From positions 120,001 to 152,000 of the forward strand of contig NC_017856.1 in assembly GCF_000260965.1 (NCBI RefSeq): a stretch of 32,000 bases of DNA, given 5' to 3'. The notes beneath the pieces are model-generated. The model did no database searches. It saw nothing but the letters and a program-made list of their open reading frames with translations, and was not told the DNA's origin. Positions 1 to 11,233 of the stretch are shown here, piece by piece. Every line of letters starts with the position of its first letter. Within the stretch, counting starts at the first letter, position 1. The translations under genes and the position numbers were made by a program. The stretch comes from Methylophaga frappieri. GTDB lineage: Bacteria; Pseudomonadota; Gammaproteobacteria; Nitrosococcales; Methylophagaceae.

Positions 1-667
1 AGACATGCCGCCCGGATGTTTTAGCGAGTCCCCGGTGTTCCATATATTTCATGAACCGCGCCTGGTAAATAGACAGGATAGGACCAAGGCCCATGGAAAC
101 GGTTGGAAACTGCCAGTAATCTGGCATCAGCCAAGGATGTGGATAGGAAGACAAGCCTTTACCATCCACCTCAAAGCGGAAATTATCGAGTTGCTCTTCC
201 GTTAAGCGGCCTTCAAGAAACGAACGTGCATAAATACCTGGTGACGAGTGTCCTTGGAAAAACACCATATCGGCACCATTGCCGTAGTCATCACCTTTAA
301 AGAAGTGGTTAAAACCGACATCGTATAAGGTCGCTGCCGAAGAAAAACTGGCAATATGTCCACCAACAGACCCCGGTTTCAAATTCGCTTTGACCACCAT
401 TGCCATGGCATTCCAGCGAATGTAAGAGCGCAGTTTGTGTTCCATGGCCTGATCACCGGGAATGCGTTCCTGTTGATCAGCCGGAATCGTATTCACATAG
501 GCTGTATTAGCGCTATACGGCAAATTGACACCATTGCGCCGTGCCAAATCAATCAGCTTTTCAATAATGAAATGGGCTTTTTCATCGCCTGCAATTTCAA
601 TAACAGACTCAAGCGCATCTAACCATTCCTGCGTTTCCTGCGGGTCTTGATCGACAAAATCAGTCAT
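1..667 (-). CDS. aceE: Pyruvate dehydrogenase E1 component, N-terminal part (runs off the window's left edge)
   Basis: Absent from the ORF track because there is no stop inside the window. ATG at 667-665. My reverse-strand translation is MTDFVDQDPQETQEWLDALESVIE...NTIPADQQERIPGD...LRSYIRWNAMAMVVKAN...FFQGHSSPGIYARSFLEGRLTEEQLDNFR...SSYPHPWLMPDYWQFPTVSMGLGP. This tracks the conserved AceE N-terminus. Confidence 0.9.
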   Translation of the reverse strand, partial: MTDFVDQDPQETQEWLDALESVIEIAGDEKAHFIIEKLIDLARRNGVNLPYSANTAYVNTIPADQQERIPGDQAMEHKLRSYIRWNAMAMVVKANLKPGSVGGHIASFSSAATLYDVGFNHFFKGDDYGNGADMVFFQGHSSPGIYARSFLEGRLTEEQLDNFRFEVDGKGLSSYPHPWLMPDYWQFPTVSMGLGPILSIYQARFMKYMEHRGLAKTSGRHV

Positions 668-818: not shown

Positions 819-1415
819 TTATTGGCGTGCCAGTATGATGGGCTTGATCGTGGCACGATAAAAACGCATGAATAACAGCGTTGCCAGAATAAAGATATAC
901 AGCAATGGCTCACGAATATCGGCCTTCACCAACATCAAAAAATGCAGACAGGCCAGACAGGCAATCACGTAAGTCAGTTTATGTAGTTTTTTCCAGCGCC
1001 GACCAAGCCGTTTTATCATCGCCTTGGTGGAAGTGGCCGCAAGTGGCACTAATAACGTGAAGCTGATAAAGCCAATCGTAATGAAGGGTCGTTCGATGAT
1101 ATCAGCGAGAATTTCCGGCCAGTCAAAAAACTTATCAAGCCATAGGTATAGCAACATGTGCAAACAGGCGTAAAAAAAACAATATAGCCCCATCATACGT
1201 CGGAATTGAATCCACCCAGGCCAATCAGTCAACCAGCGTAATGGGGTCATCGTTAATGTAATCAACAAAAATCGTAACGCCCAGGTACCGGAATCACGCG
1301 TGACTTCTTCGATTGGGTTTGCGCCAAGCTGATCGGTCAATACGGCATAGGTGAGCCAAGCTGCTGGCGCGAATGCCAGCAAAAACACGACTATCTTGAT
1401 ACGGGCAATAGACAT
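819..1415 (-). CDS. msrQ: Protein-methionine-sulfoxide reductase heme-binding membrane subunit MsrQ (YedZ)
   Basis: Multi-TM protein with YedZ-like sequence (MSIARIKIVVFLL...GANPIEEVTRDSGTWALRFLLITL...). It starts 10 nt after the msrP stop. I prefer the ATG at 1415 (verified cat 1413-1415) over the track start at 1454. Confidence 0.85.
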   Translation of the reverse strand: MSIARIKIVVFLLAFAPAAWLTYAVLTDQLGANPIEEVTRDSGTWALRFLLITLTMTPLRWLTDWPGWIQFRRMMGLYCFFYACLHMLLYLWLDKFFDWPEILADIIERPFITIGFISFTLLVPLAATSTKAMIKRLGRRWKKLHKLTYVIACLACLHFLMLVKADIREPLLYIFILATLLFMRFYRATIKPIILARQ

Positions 1416-1425
1416 GTCGAATGAT

Positions 1426-2382
1426 CTAGAAGTATTTGCGCAAATCCATGCCATCGTACAGATCGGCTACTTCCTCACCATAGCCATTGAACATTAGCGT
1501 TTCGCGTTTTAAAAACTCACCAATCCGCCGTTCACGCTTCTGACTCCAGCGGGGATGATCAACGTCAGGGTTTACATTGGAATAAAATCCATATTCGTTG
1601 GGACCTGCAAGCATCCATGTCGTGGTTGGCATCCGCTCGACAAAGCGGATCCGAACAATAGACTTAATGCTTTTAAAACCATATTTCCAAGGTACAACAA
1701 GTCGAATCGGTGCGCCGTTTTGTCCCGGCATCTCATGCCCGTAAAGGCCAATCGCCAACAAGGTCAATGGATGCATGGCTTCATCCATGCGCAGAGCCTC
1801 GATATAAGGCCACTGGAGGACTTCTCGACGTTGTCCCGGCATTTGCTCAGGGTCAAACAAAGTCGTGAATTCAACAAACTTGGCATTGGTATTAGGCTGT
1901 GCTGCTTTTAATACCGCGGCCAGAGGAAAACCCGTCCACGGAATAACCATCGACCAGCCTTCAACACAACGCAAGCGGTAAATTCGCTCTTCCAGATCTT
2001 GTTTGCCGATCAAGTCGTCAACATCATACACACCGGGCTTGTCACACTCGCCATCGATCGTGACCTGCCATGGTTTATTTGGATCTGGGAAGTCCGTGGC
2101 ATAGGTTGCCGGGTCAGACTTGTCCGTACCAAACTCATAAAAATTATTGTAAGTCGTAATATCCTGATAAGTCGTTAACTTTTCATCCGTTGAGAAACGA
2201 CTTTCGGTTGTATTATCAAAGGCCTGTCCAGTGGGTTCCTTTTCTGCCAAAGCAACGGGCAAGGTTAAGGCTGCGGTCATCCCCAATGCACTGTTGATAA
2301 AGCGGCGACGGTTTAAGAAAACCTGATAATCCGTCACTTCAGACTCAGGTAGCTGCCAACGGGCCTTTCGTTTAATTAGCAT
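1426..2382 (-). CDS. msrP: Periplasmic protein-methionine-sulfoxide reductase molybdopterin subunit MsrP (YedY)
   Basis: Twin-arginine signal ([25 protein letters not shown]). Near-colinear match to E. coli YedY motifs: [60 protein letters not shown] at 2382 is preceded by GAGGGGA. The track start at 2451 is an upstream extension. Confidence 0.93.
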
Positions 2383-3004
2383 GAATTCCCCTCTTATCTC
2401 TGAAGTATCGATATAGCCAATCATCAAGGCTGAGATAACGTCCCGCCCCAATAAAAAACAACGCTAATAACATGACAAAATAAGTTGCGGCAAATTCGAT
2501 ACCATTGTTGAGCATCGCTAATCGACCATGCTCTGTCAGCCAACTGTAATTACCGTGCTCCTGCAAAATTGATTTTGCTTTGTCCAAGCGCGCTATCGCA
2601 CCCAAGGCATTTTCAGAAGCAAAAGCACTCATCGGATCATGAATTGCCTGCCAGCCATTTTTCAAATGTACCGAGACCGCAGCGACCACCATGGTGATCA
2701 TCAGCGGTATACTGATCCAGCGTACGGCAAGACCAAGCAACAATAAAATGGCACCAAAATATTCCGCTGCCCAGGCTAGATAGGCCATCAAGGCAGGAAA
2801 AGGCAGCCCCAATCCCCACTCCGCGTTGGCAAACCAATCAATCGTTGGCTGCAAACTGCTACTGCTATCAAAAGGATTCCACTTGTTATTTGCCGCAAAC
2901 CAAAACACCGGCACCAAATAAGCCCTAAGCAACAGTGGGGCTAAAAAATCCACAGCTCGAGTTTTGTCGAGCCCGTCTTGCGCGAGATTGAATAGGCGTA
3001 ACAT
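2372..3004 (-). CDS. DoxX-family integral membrane protein (long form, about 210 aa; possibly the DoxX-type partner of HvfA-class RiPP loci)
   Basis: DoxX-like pattern: [19 protein letters not shown] ... [43 protein letters not shown] at 3004 has AAGGA 7 nt upstream; the track start at 3034 has no SD and abuts a hairpin. Its stop (2374-2372) lies 11 nt inside msrP. Confidence 0.75.
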
Positions 3005-3035
3005 GTGATTTCCTTTAAGCGTGGTCTGGGACATA

Positions 3036-3057: not shown

Positions 3058-3072
3058 ATGACCATTAACGTC

Positions 3073-3372
3073 TTAACCGTTACCACCACATTTGGCTTCA
3101 CCGCATTTGCCTTCACCATCTTTTTTCATGTCTTCGCCACATTTGGCCTCACCACATTTACCTTCGCCATCTTTCTTCATGTCTTCGCCACACTTAGCTT
3201 CGCCACATTTCGCTTCATCACCATCATGCTCAGCCAAATGCATATAGCCACTGCTCAATTCTGTACTAGCAAAAGGGTTGCTATCCGCATGAATCATTGG
3301 CGAAATGGCCATACCTGCCGTCAGTGTTGCGCCGGCTACCAGAGAAAGTGTCGTTTTTTTGCTTGTCGCCAT
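3073..3372 (-). CDS. Secreted Cys-repeat peptide: HvfA/oxazolin-like candidate RiPP metallophore precursor, or a small periplasmic metal-binding protein
   Basis: ATG at 3372 with AAGGA upstream. Sec signal MATSKKTTLSLVAGATLTAGMAISPMIHA|DS. Then NPFASTELSSGYMHLAEHDGDE, followed by six KCG motifs in CxxxxC pairs (Cys 56, 61, 73, 78, 90, 95) separated by EDMKKDGEG. The mature part is about 70 aa and acidic. Confidence 0.8.
   Translation of the reverse strand: MATSKKTTLSLVAGATLTAGMAISPMIHADSNPFASTELSSGYMHLAEHDGDEAKCGEAKCGEDMKKDGEGKCGEAKCGEDMKKDGEGKCGEAKCGGNG
3088..3225 (-). repeat. 51-bp tandem coding repeat (2 full units plus 1 partial) inside the peptide gene
   Basis: Units 3088-3138 and 3139-3189 are identical at 46 of 51 nt. 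Both encode GEDMKKDGEGKCGEAKC, so all 5 differences are synonymous. The third, partial unit (3190-3225) encodes DGDEAKCGEAKC. Confidence 0.9.
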
Positions 3373-3430
3373 GGGAGTGTTCCTTTAGTTAATAAAAAAT
3401 AAACTGGTTATATCGACCAGCTTGTTTTAC

Positions 3431-3457
3431 TAGACTCCCCATAAAGGCATTTGTTAC
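3431..3457 (-). promoter_or_regulatory. Candidate ECF-type promoter for the peptide-doxX-msrPQ operon
   Basis: The minus strand reads GTAACA-N16-GTCTA (AAC in the -35, GTC in the -10), about 60 nt upstream of the ATG at 3372. Motif match by eye only. Confidence 0.25.
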
Positions 3458-9063: not shown

Positions 9064-10148
9064 AATACCGCCTTAGGGTAGGCGCCAAGCACTCTGAACA
9101 TCGACGATTCTGATTCCAGTTTGGCCAGCGCATCAGCCACAGCTGAGTCCTGACTATGGCCTTCAATATCGATAAAAAACACGTATTCCCAGATGCCTTT
9201 TCGGGAGGGTCGTGATTCAATTCGACTCATACTGATCTGATTTTCTGCCAATGGTTGCAATAATTTTTGCAAGGCACCCGGCTTATTTTTAGTTGAGACG
9301 AGTAAAGCTGTTTTATCTGCACCACTTGGACCAACATCTTGACGACCAATCACCAAAAACCGAGTGGTATTGCCAGCCTCGTCTTCGATATTGTTCGCCA
9401 ATACGGTCAAATTATAAATTTCTGCGGCGTTACTGGCTGCAATCGCCGCAGCAGTCTCATCCATTGTCGACACTCGACGCGCTGCTTCCGCATTACTATC
9501 CAGCGGGATTAACGCTGCTTGTGGTAATTGATCGCCCAGCCATTGTCTGCATTGGGCTAGTGCTTGCGGATGAGCATACACTGTTTTAACGTCGCTCAGG
9601 TTCTCGCCCTTGCCCAATAAATAATGATGAATGCGCAGCGATACTTCACCATTAATTTTCAATGAAGAGCTGATAAATCTGTCTAATGTATGACTGACCA
9701 TGCCTTCTGTCGAGTTTTCAACTGGCACAACGCCATAACAGGCATGTTCTGTTTCAACGGCACTGAACACATTCGCAATCGTACTGACGGGCAGCAATTC
9801 TGCTGAACCACCAAAGTGTTTTAATGCAGCTGACTGCGTGAAGGAACCTTCAGGTCCTAAGTAAGCGATACTAAGTGGTTTTTCTGCAGCTAGGCATGCA
9901 GACATAATTTCTCGAAACAGCCTTGCCATCTCTTTATCGGGAAGCGGTCCGGTATTTCTTTCCATAACACGTCGCAAAATCATCGCTTCACGTTCAGGCC
10001 GATAAAAATCACTTTGATCTGCTTGTTGTTGTTTAATTTCGGCTACCTGATGCGCCAGAGCAGTACGCGCATTGATTAGCGTCTGAATTTTTTCATCCAG
10101 CGCATCAATCTCCTGCCGTACATTTTGCAACGCTTTTTGTTCAGACAT
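9060..10148 (-). CDS. pheA: Bifunctional chorismate mutase / prephenate dehydratase (P-protein)
   Basis: N-terminal CM helix ([29 protein letters not shown]), a PDT domain ([12 protein letters not shown]...) and an ACT domain ([21 protein letters not shown]). The track start at 10157 is TTG. I prefer ATG at 10148 (MSEQK...). Confidence 0.93.
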
Positions 10149-10153
10149 ACCTA

Positions 10154-11233
10154 TCAACCAAACCTGCGTTCAAATTCCATCATAAAGTCAATGAGCCGAT
10201 CAACACCTGCCTCAGGCATCGCATTATAAATGCTGGCACGCATACCACCGAGATCGCGATGACCTTTTAACGTCAGTAGACCTGCTGCCGCGGACATTTG
10301 CAAGAATGTTTTGTCGAGCTCGCTATTCACTAACGTAAAGGGAATATTCATCCAGGATCGACTCGATTTCTCAACCGGATTCGCATAAAAATCGCTGCCA
10401 TCAATCGCGGCATAAAGCTTAGCTGCTTTACGTGAATTAATCTCAGCCATTGCCTGCAGGCCGCCCTGTTGTTTCAACCATTGAAATACCAGCCCGGCAA
10501 GATACCAGCTATAGGTTGCCGGCGTGTTATACATGGAGTCGTTCTTATCATGTATTTGATAATCGAACATGGTCGGCGTGCCCGGTAGCGTTTTGCCGAT
10601 CAAATCGCGACGAACGATCACAATACACAAACCCGCCGGACCAATATTTTTCTGCGCGCCAGCATAAATCAAACCAAATCGATTCACATCGATGGGTCGT
10701 GATAACAGCGTCGAAGACATATCCGCAACCAGTGTAGCCGAGCTCACCTGTGGGATATCGTGAAACTCAACACCATGAATGGTCTCATTCGGCGTGTAAT
10801 GCAAATAAGCGGCATCCTGATTGACTTGCCATTCATGCAGGGGCGGAATACAAGTAAACTTTGAAGCCTTGGCATCGGCAACCACATTAACTTGGCAAAA
10901 CCGTTGCGCTTCTTTAATTGCTTTACTCGACCAGGCTCCCGTGTTGACGTAATCAGCAGCCGTTTTCTCCTGCAAAAAATTCAGTGGAATCATCGAAAAC
11001 TGGCTGGATGCACCGCCCTGTAAAAACAAGACAGCATAATCGTCGGAAATACCCAGCAAATCGCGCAAATCGGCCTCTGCTTGAGTTGCAATTTCTGTGT
11101 ACTCCGGACCACGGTGACTCATCTCCATCACCGACATACCCGTACCACGCCAATCCAGCATTTCTTCACTGGCTTGTTGCATAACCGCTTCCGGTAACAT
11201 CGCCGGACCGGCACTAAAATTATAAGCTCTCAA
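10154..11233 (-). CDS. serC: Phosphoserine aminotransferase
   Basis: YNFSAGPAMLPEAVMQQA, FLQGGASSQF, AGAQKNIGPAGL and GGMRASIYNAMP motifs. The start codon at 11233-11231 is TTG. The next in-frame ATG would delete the conserved FSAGPA. Confidence 0.93.
   Translation of the reverse strand: MRAYNFSAGPAMLPEAVMQQASEEMLDWRGTGMSVMEMSHRGPEYTEIATQAEADLRDLLGISDDYAVLFLQGGASSQFSMIPLNFLQEKTAADYVNTGAWSSKAIKEAQRFCQVNVVADAKASKFTCIPPLHEWQVNQDAAYLHYTPNETIHGVEFHDIPQVSSATLVADMSSTLLSRPIDVNRFGLIYAGAQKNIGPAGLCIVIVRRDLIGKTLPGTPTMFDYQIHDKNDSMYNTPATYSWYLAGLVFQWLKQQGGLQAMAEINSRKAAKLYAAIDGSDFYANPVEKSSRSWMNIPFTLVNSELDKTFLQMSAAAGLLTLKGHRDLGGMRASIYNAMPEAGVDRLIDFMMEFERRFG

Follow-up and report, generated by a model that had tools for sequence, protein, structure and literature searches.

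The hvf gene cluster is probably split in Methylophaga frappieri and in the Methylophagaceae at large. The gene for the precursor peptide, hvfA, is found there in an operon with hvfX, msrP, and msrQ, and its product would be matured by an MNIO/DUF2063 enzyme pair encoded at a remote site, through the mechanism set out below. This reading is built on what was observed in the window (the whole 32-kb stretch of M. frappieri DNA that was analysed) and in related loci, namely the family identity of the peptide, the layout of its operon, and the conservation of the promoter in front of it. To these is added a maturase pair whose occurrence was taken from a published genome table and whose position was estimated from accession order.

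The hvfA ORF had been described in an earlier note as coding for 99 residues with a signal-like N-terminus, an NPF...GYM segment, and six cysteines in KCG context that form three C-x4-C pairs. Its translation, MATSKKTTLSLVAGATLTAGMAISPMIHADSNPFASTELSSGYMHLAEHDGDEAKCGEAKCGEDMKKDGEGKCGEAKCGEDMKKDGEGKCGEAKCGGNG, agrees with this description in every respect and is the product deposited for M. frappieri JAM7 as WP_014702754.1 / AFJ01304.1 (exact accession). Residues 1-29 make up the signal-like N-terminus, MATSKKTTLSLVAGATLTAGMAISPMIHA, which is followed by D; a KK n-region and a hydrophobic core (15-aa hydropathy of 1.75) were judged by eye to be those of a Sec signal, and cleavage was placed by inspection at IHA|D. 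Following the signal peptide, residues 32-44 read NPFASTELSSGYM (NPF-x4-L-x2-GYM). The cysteines (residues 56, 61, 73, 78, 90, and 95) are arranged as KCGEAKCG pairs between residues 53 and 97 and are separated by EDMKKDG linkers. Pairs and linkers together constitute a 17-residue protein repeat, which corresponds to the 51-nt tandem unit of the gene. There are three methionines among the 70 residues of the mature peptide. The gene is covered entirely by an antisense ORF of 114 aa (window positions 3058-3402, plus strand), which may mislead gene callers.

A database search with the peptide revealed 2367 homologous proteins at E<=0.001. The NCBIfam model NF050137 (KCGExKCG_twice, the HvfA-family domain) matched two stretches of the peptide with 68 bits against a cut-off of 19.5, so the HvfA/EGKCG identity proposed earlier held up to profile scoring. 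The score with NF050188, the H. influenzae HvfA equivalog, was 49.6 bits and thus below the cut-off of 95. Since the first model was passed and the second was not, the M. frappieri peptide is a member of the HvfA family but not an equivalog. A Pfam scan of the peptide revealed no family at E<=0.1, DUF2282 (the Buf1 signature) included. We conclude that, as judged from its sequence, the hvfA ORF is a genuine HvfA (Buf_EGKCG/oxazolin) precursor, which belongs to a family of Sec-exported, Cys-repeat, copper-binding RiPPs. The peptide is already catalogued in a published survey (see below).

On the chromosome, hvfA is the first of four tightly packed genes transcribed from the same strand, hvfA-hvfX(DoxX)-msrP-msrQ (Table 1). 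The start of hvfX is located 38-68 nt 3' of the hvfA end, depending on the start codon chosen. Its product scored 220.4 bits with the HvfX family model (NF050144, cut-off of 80) and shares 57% identity with its DoxX counterpart in L008, a locus with the canonical order hvfA-MNIO-hvfC-doxX. In the case of msrP, the product scored 477.6 bits with the MsrP equivalog model (NF003767, cut-off of 207) and contains a twin-arginine signal (NRRRFI); the match begins at residue 25 of the ORF, and Met24, which overlaps the hvfX end by 11 nt, is the likely start. The msrQ product scored 211 bits against a cut-off of 130 (NF003831), with a match from residue 14. On the other side of hvfA, a sigma factor gene and an anti-sigma factor gene are followed by DUF1244 and ABC transporter genes. 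The anti-sigma factor is small and soluble, with an H30-x3-C34-x2-C37 motif and no transmembrane segment (maximum 19-aa hydropathy of 0.32). The list of flanking genes in the earlier note (aceE, sigma, anti-sigma, DUF1244, and ABC) was correct as far as it went; hvfX, msrP, and msrQ, which lie before aceE, were omitted from it, even though DoxX and MsrP figure in the third explanation of that note.

Table 1. Features of the hvfA region of M. frappieri (positions refer to the window)
Feature	Position	Strand	Remarks
aceE	667..2	-	beyond msrQ
msrQ, haem-b membrane partner of MsrP	819..1454	-	NF003831; likely start 1415
msrP, periplasmic molybdopterin methionine-sulfoxide reductase	1426..2382	-	NF003767 equivalog
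hvfX, DoxX-family membrane protein	2372..3034	-	start 3034 or Met11 (3004); PF07681, NF050144
hvfA (Buf_EGKCG/oxazolin precursor)	3073..3372	-	99 aa; NF050137 match, homologues, exact accession
hvfA repeat core	3082..3217	-	TRF: period 51 nt, 2.6 copies, 85% matches
Terminator-like hairpin and U-tract in hvfA leader	3401..3423	-	between -10 element and ribosome-binding site
ECF-type promoter GTAACA-N16-GTCTA (TGTAACAA ... GTCTA)	3431..3457	-	upstream of hvfA
ECF-type sigma-70 factor, WP_014702755.1	3578..4189	+	Sigma70_r2, r4_2, TIGR02937; divergent from hvfA
zf-HC2 anti-sigma factor, 80 aa	4190..4432	+	PF13490; NF052368 59.7 vs cut-off 50

The GTAACA-N16-GTCTA promoter upstream of hvfA is the single match to this pattern in the 32-kb window, while 0.02 matches would be expected by chance. 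In 16 Methylophagaceae loci, the promoter elements AACA (TGTAACAA) and GTCTA were invariant, and the spacing between them was fixed. Presumably, this promoter is used by the adjacent ECF sigma factor. The leader downstream of it contains a hairpin of 8-10 bp, which was found at the same position in 15 out of 16 related leaders (loci: the window, L001, L004, L007, L012, L015-L021, L024, L026, L039, and L066); stem sequences differ from locus to locus, and in L004 the stem is split by bulges. An Rfam search with the hvfA leader hairpin matched no family, and RNAalifold, applied to an alignment of promoters and leaders, gave no consensus structure; the register of the hairpin shifts in the MAFFT alignment. 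The hairpin may serve in attenuation, or as a 5' stem that stabilises the mRNA.

A second ECF-like motif (GTAACATT...CGTCTA) was observed within the 3' end of the sigma factor gene, just upstream of the anti-sigma factor gene, in nine distinct Methylophagaceae loci (11 with the near-duplicates L005 and L006), and is absent from the window. Its sites, all on the minus strand, are at positions 9362 in L004, 7363 in L012, 8999 in L018, 8393 in L019, 8817 in L021, 8726 in L024, 2503 in L026, 8892 in L039, and 8722 in L066. Because the motif overlaps the conserved coding sequence of region 4.2, it probably reflects a coding constraint; alternatively, it may be an internal feedback promoter.

All large ORFs of the window were scanned with Pfam, and tblastn was run with four queries, two of them MNIO and two HvfC. 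Neither approach turned up an MNIO or DUF2063 gene in the 32-kb window, as the earlier note had stated, and tblastn revealed no MNIO or HvfC gene within 10 kb of the hvfA locus in 17 Methylophagaceae loci. A published survey of MNIO systems is accompanied by a per-genome Table S2, in which the row GCF_000260965.1 is the M. frappieri assembly (PMC12452194). In this row, WP_014702754.1, the hvfA product, is given as Buf_EGKCG, and it is the sole recognised precursor of the genome, the numbers of Buf1, Buf2, and TIGR04222 precursors being zero. The same row contains one DUF692 (MNIO) protein, WP_014702799.1, one DUF2063 protein, WP_014702798.1, and two DoxX proteins, WP_014702753.1 and WP_014703914.1 (PMC12452194). 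The whole-genome check for DUF692 and DUF2063 genes that the earlier note called for is thereby answered, with one of each. WP_014702799.1 also appears in the Fig7B sheet of the survey (the large bufferin/oxazolin MNIO cluster), in the column for PME-type 1, an enzyme class that is tied by the survey to signal-peptide precursors (PMC12452194).

While the existence and class of the MNIO/DUF2063 pair were taken from the published Table S2 and Fig7B, its position was estimated from the order of accessions. Exact look-ups revealed that RefSeq/GenBank accessions strictly follow gene order along the window: in the series WP_0147027xx, hvfA (Q7C_123) ends in 754, the sigma factor in 755, the anti-sigma factor (Q7C_125) in 756, a permease in 759, IspH in 760, GyrA in 763, Smr (Q7C_140) in 771, TerC in 773, a GGDEF protein in 774, and PurL in 775. 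By this order, the pair should be encoded ca. 45 genes from hvfA on the same chromosome, i.e., at a distance of ca. 50 kb given the gene density of the window (ca. 1.14 kb per gene). This would put it ca. 20 genes beyond the right-hand edge of the window, with predicted locus tags of about Q7C_167/168. Assembly GCF_000260985.4 is presumably that of M. nitratireducenticrescens JAM1. Its row in Table S2, which comes right after that of M. frappieri, has the same pattern, with an MNIO/DUF2063 pair ca. 95 accessions off (PMC12452194). A protein search was also conducted with HvfB of Thiocapsa, which was chosen as a query for its neighbouring HvfX and HvfA, closest to those of Methylophaga. No Methylophaga MNIO was among the 120 matches listed, all of which came from Chromatiaceae and were at least 74% identical to the query. 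The apparent paradox of a RiPP precursor that lacks a maturase thus dissolves, since the genome has one MNIO/partner pair beyond the window. Of the three options offered in the earlier note, that of maturases acting from elsewhere is the best supported, given the MNIO and DUF2063 entries of Table S2 (PMC12452194).

An HvfX alignment was used to scan genomes that represent species, which yielded additional loci, and a tblastn census was carried out over 94 sequences. The Methylophagaceae layout, in which the sigma/anti-sigma pair is divergent from hvfA-hvfX-msrP-msrQ and the whole is placed between DUF1244/ABC genes and aceE, is also present in M. pinxianii, Methylophaga sp. OBS1, M. lonarensis, sp. 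42_25_T18, and one JGI metagenome genome. According to the census, all 17 distinct Methylophagaceae loci have this layout without MNIO or HvfC within 10 kb, and in most of the other gammaproteobacteria the cluster is canonical (hvfA-MNIO-hvfC-hvfX). In two loci, L028 (Thiohalomonadaceae; 2-2563) and L057 (8313-10915), MNIO-hvfC-hvfX is followed by an msrP-like gene; this intermediate architecture ties msrP to canonical hvf clusters. A related sigma/anti-sigma pair is present ahead of the canonical cluster in the Pseudomonas-type loci L071, L081, and L090. A split hvf system was also seen in a second lineage, that of Thiocapsa marina. Genes hvfB-hvfC of the T. marina type stand alone in L094 (8001-9633), an 11.7-kb locus with no EGKCG peptide or hvfX, and T. 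marina hvfX and hvfA are found together in L036 (10001-14062), with no MNIO within 10 kb.

Two features, the [NS]PF-x4-L-x2-GY motif and the pairing of KCG units, recur in 18 out of 18 distinct Methylophagaceae peptides, and in 36 out of 40 peptides from loci outside the family, most of which have an MNIO gene adjoining. This common motif and KCG context indicate that the unlinked peptides are constrained in the same way as those encoded beside a maturase. Linkers vary among the Methylophagaceae peptides, and the number of cysteines ranges from 6 to 14, which points to rapid expansion and contraction of the repeat. Methionine is not conserved in the core of these peptides, where there are from one to nine residues, and only one in several species. 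Tandem hvfA paralogues with unequal numbers of repeats were observed in L019 (9040-9921) and L078 (3636-4643).

In ca. 20 loci, a gene of the HvfX family was found with none of the other components (EGKCG peptide, MNIO, HvfC) recognisable in the surrounding 10 kb; examples are L051, L061, L063, L073, L075, and L084 (hvfX at ca. 10001-10600). In L083 (Colwellia), hvfX adjoins a sigma/zf-HC2 anti-sigma pair alone. Inspection of the neighbours of orphan hvfX in ca. 20 genomes revealed no obvious conserved partner. Given these loci, the role of HvfX may be independent of a neighbouring peptide.

Among known systems, the hvf operon of H. influenzae (hvfX-hvfA-hvfB-hvfC, whose product is oxazolin; PMC11252979) is among the closest comparisons for M. 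frappieri hvfA. Both precursors have a Sec signal, a length of ca. 95-99 aa, and three (A)EGKCGE(G/A)KCG pairs with six target cysteines; in both cases a gene for the DoxX-family protein HvfX adjoins hvfA, and the genome encodes MNIO and DUF2063 proteins. In M. frappieri, however, hvfB and hvfC are not adjacent to hvfA but ca. 45 genes away, the peptide (6 Cys) is without the N-terminal disulfide Cys pair of H. influenzae HvfA (8 Cys), and the locus carries msrPQ and the ECF sigma/anti-sigma pair. With the bufferins of Caulobacter vibrioides (buf1ABCD, buf2; SigF/NrsF; PMC11626156), the M. frappieri system shares the logic of ECF sigma control, a Sec-exported, Cys-derived, copper-chelating RiPP, and a DoxX gene. 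The precursor families are different (DUF2282 and Buf_6/12Cys in Caulobacter versus EGKCG repeats in M. frappieri), as are the anti-sigma factors (membrane-bound NrsF versus soluble zf-HC2, respectively), and, unlike in Caulobacter, the maturase genes of M. frappieri are unlinked from the precursor (PMC11626156). A third likeness is to MrpX-YedY1(MsrP)-YedZ1 of Azospira suillum (SigF/NrsF; PMC4436054), where an ECF-controlled small secreted peptide is combined with MsrP/MsrQ in envelope oxidant defence. MrpX is a Met-rich hypochlorite sink (PMC4436054), whereas the M. frappieri peptide is rich in Cys, Gly, Lys, and Glu, and low in Met. With regard to the MrpX-type class, the M. frappieri locus thus has the adjacency of MsrPQ and ECF sigma factor and lacks the Met-rich peptide. 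The survey cited above reports Buf_EGKCG clusters "in various combinations", as well as stand-alone precursors, and a few clusters with Oxidored_molyb or ferric-reductase genes (PMC12452194). The hvfA-hvfX-msrPQ operon that is common to the Methylophagaceae is not treated there, nor are its conserved ECF-type promoter and the retention of hvfX with the peptide, rather than with the enzymes, where the cluster is split.

Maturation by the remote pair has to be weighed against export of the peptide without modification. The peptide would then be a metallothionein-like thiolate buffer for Cu(I) or a sacrificial redox sink, kept reduced or repaired by HvfX and MsrPQ, in resemblance to hypochlorite scavenging by MrpX/MsrP, and the remote MNIO pair would serve some other, unrecognised substrate. 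We consider this unlikely, though worth keeping in mind. In every Methylophagaceae locus examined, hvfA is indeed grouped with hvfX and msrPQ and never with MNIO, but the one MNIO/PME-type-1 pair of the genome has this peptide as its only recognised precursor, and the N-terminal motif and strict KCG context of the peptide match those of peptides encoded beside MNIO. For precursors with no linked maturase, the published survey allows both outcomes: these [quoted passage not shown]. There is also a precedent in Azospira MrpX-YedY1, an ECF-controlled periplasmic peptide with an MsrP (PMC4436054); the low and unconserved methionine content in the Methylophagaceae argues that the peptide is not a Met sink of the MrpX type.

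It is highly improbable that HvfX (DoxX) and/or MsrP replace MNIO and modify the peptide in the periplasm; that DoxX or MsrP may act on the peptide was the third option of the earlier note. These proteins occupy the operon slots that are held by hvfB and hvfC in canonical clusters, and the HvfX family is called a "maturation protein" by NCBI. Yet the M. frappieri protein is an ordinary HvfX orthologue, and such orthologues are encoded beside MNIO in canonical clusters too; most loci have HvfX alongside both MNIO and HvfC, and HvfX is thus an addition to them rather than a substitute. Furthermore, the DoxX protein BufD1 is dispensable for both the modification and the copper phenotype in Caulobacter (PMC11626156), MsrP is a standard, full-scoring equivalog, and the genome has an MNIO pair of its own (Table S2, PMC12452194). 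Practically no weight can be given to the notion that hvfA is spurious, i.e., that the ORF is a low-complexity artefact or that the antisense ORF which overlaps it is the true gene. An older annotation as a "putative low-complexity protein" would agree with such a notion, and so would the lack of an entry for the peptide in the gene-position index, an index that also has none for PurL of this genome and therefore says little. Against this stand thousands of homologues in which the signal peptide, the motif, and the Cys pairs are retained, a promoter and a ribosome-binding site that are likewise conserved, a syntenic place ahead of hvfX in every relative, and the match to a curated family model. 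Conservation thus rules out the spurious-ORF reading.

Returning to the split hvf system, we infer the inducing signal, the use of the promoter by the sigma factor, the modification of the peptide by the pair, and the role of HvfX as follows. Thiol-oxidative or metal stress would inactivate the soluble zinc-finger anti-sigma factor and so set the sigma factor free, and hvfA-hvfX-msrP-msrQ would be transcribed from the ECF-type promoter. In the cytoplasm, the distant MNIO/partner complex would turn the six cysteines of the pre-peptide into 5-thiooxazoles. The modification was first reported as oxazolone/thioamide (PMC11252979), the chemistry that the earlier note named; a later reassignment made it 5-thiooxazole (10.64898/2026.07.17.739211). 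Upon Sec export and cleavage after IHA, the peptide would buffer periplasmic copper; alongside, HvfX and MsrPQ would provide quinone-linked redox protection of the envelope.

In published hvf work, the function of HvfX is uncharacterised (PMC11252979; 10.64898/2026.07.17.739211). We tentatively propose, as a possibility that we hold at less than even, that HvfX acts after export, and that a quinone-linked cycle with MsrPQ maintains the thiooxazole/thiol copper peptide in a reduced or repaired state. If true, this cycle would be the first concrete, testable function for HvfX/BufD proteins.

Published genome tables already contain both the peptide and the enzymes. The new point is a modest one: throughout the family, hvfX has remained beside hvfA and is coupled to msrPQ, with a conserved ECF-type promoter in front of the operon. 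Where the cluster is split, hvfX follows the peptide gene, not the genes of the cytoplasmic maturases, and is translationally coupled to msrPQ. The Methylophagaceae thus present a natural experiment, in which the genes acting before export (MNIO and its partner) are set apart from HvfX, MsrPQ, and the ECF sigma/anti-sigma pair, which are linked to the peptide. This arrangement points to an envelope-redox, post-export role of the DoxX-type protein HvfX, and offers a simple genetic system in which such a role can be tested.
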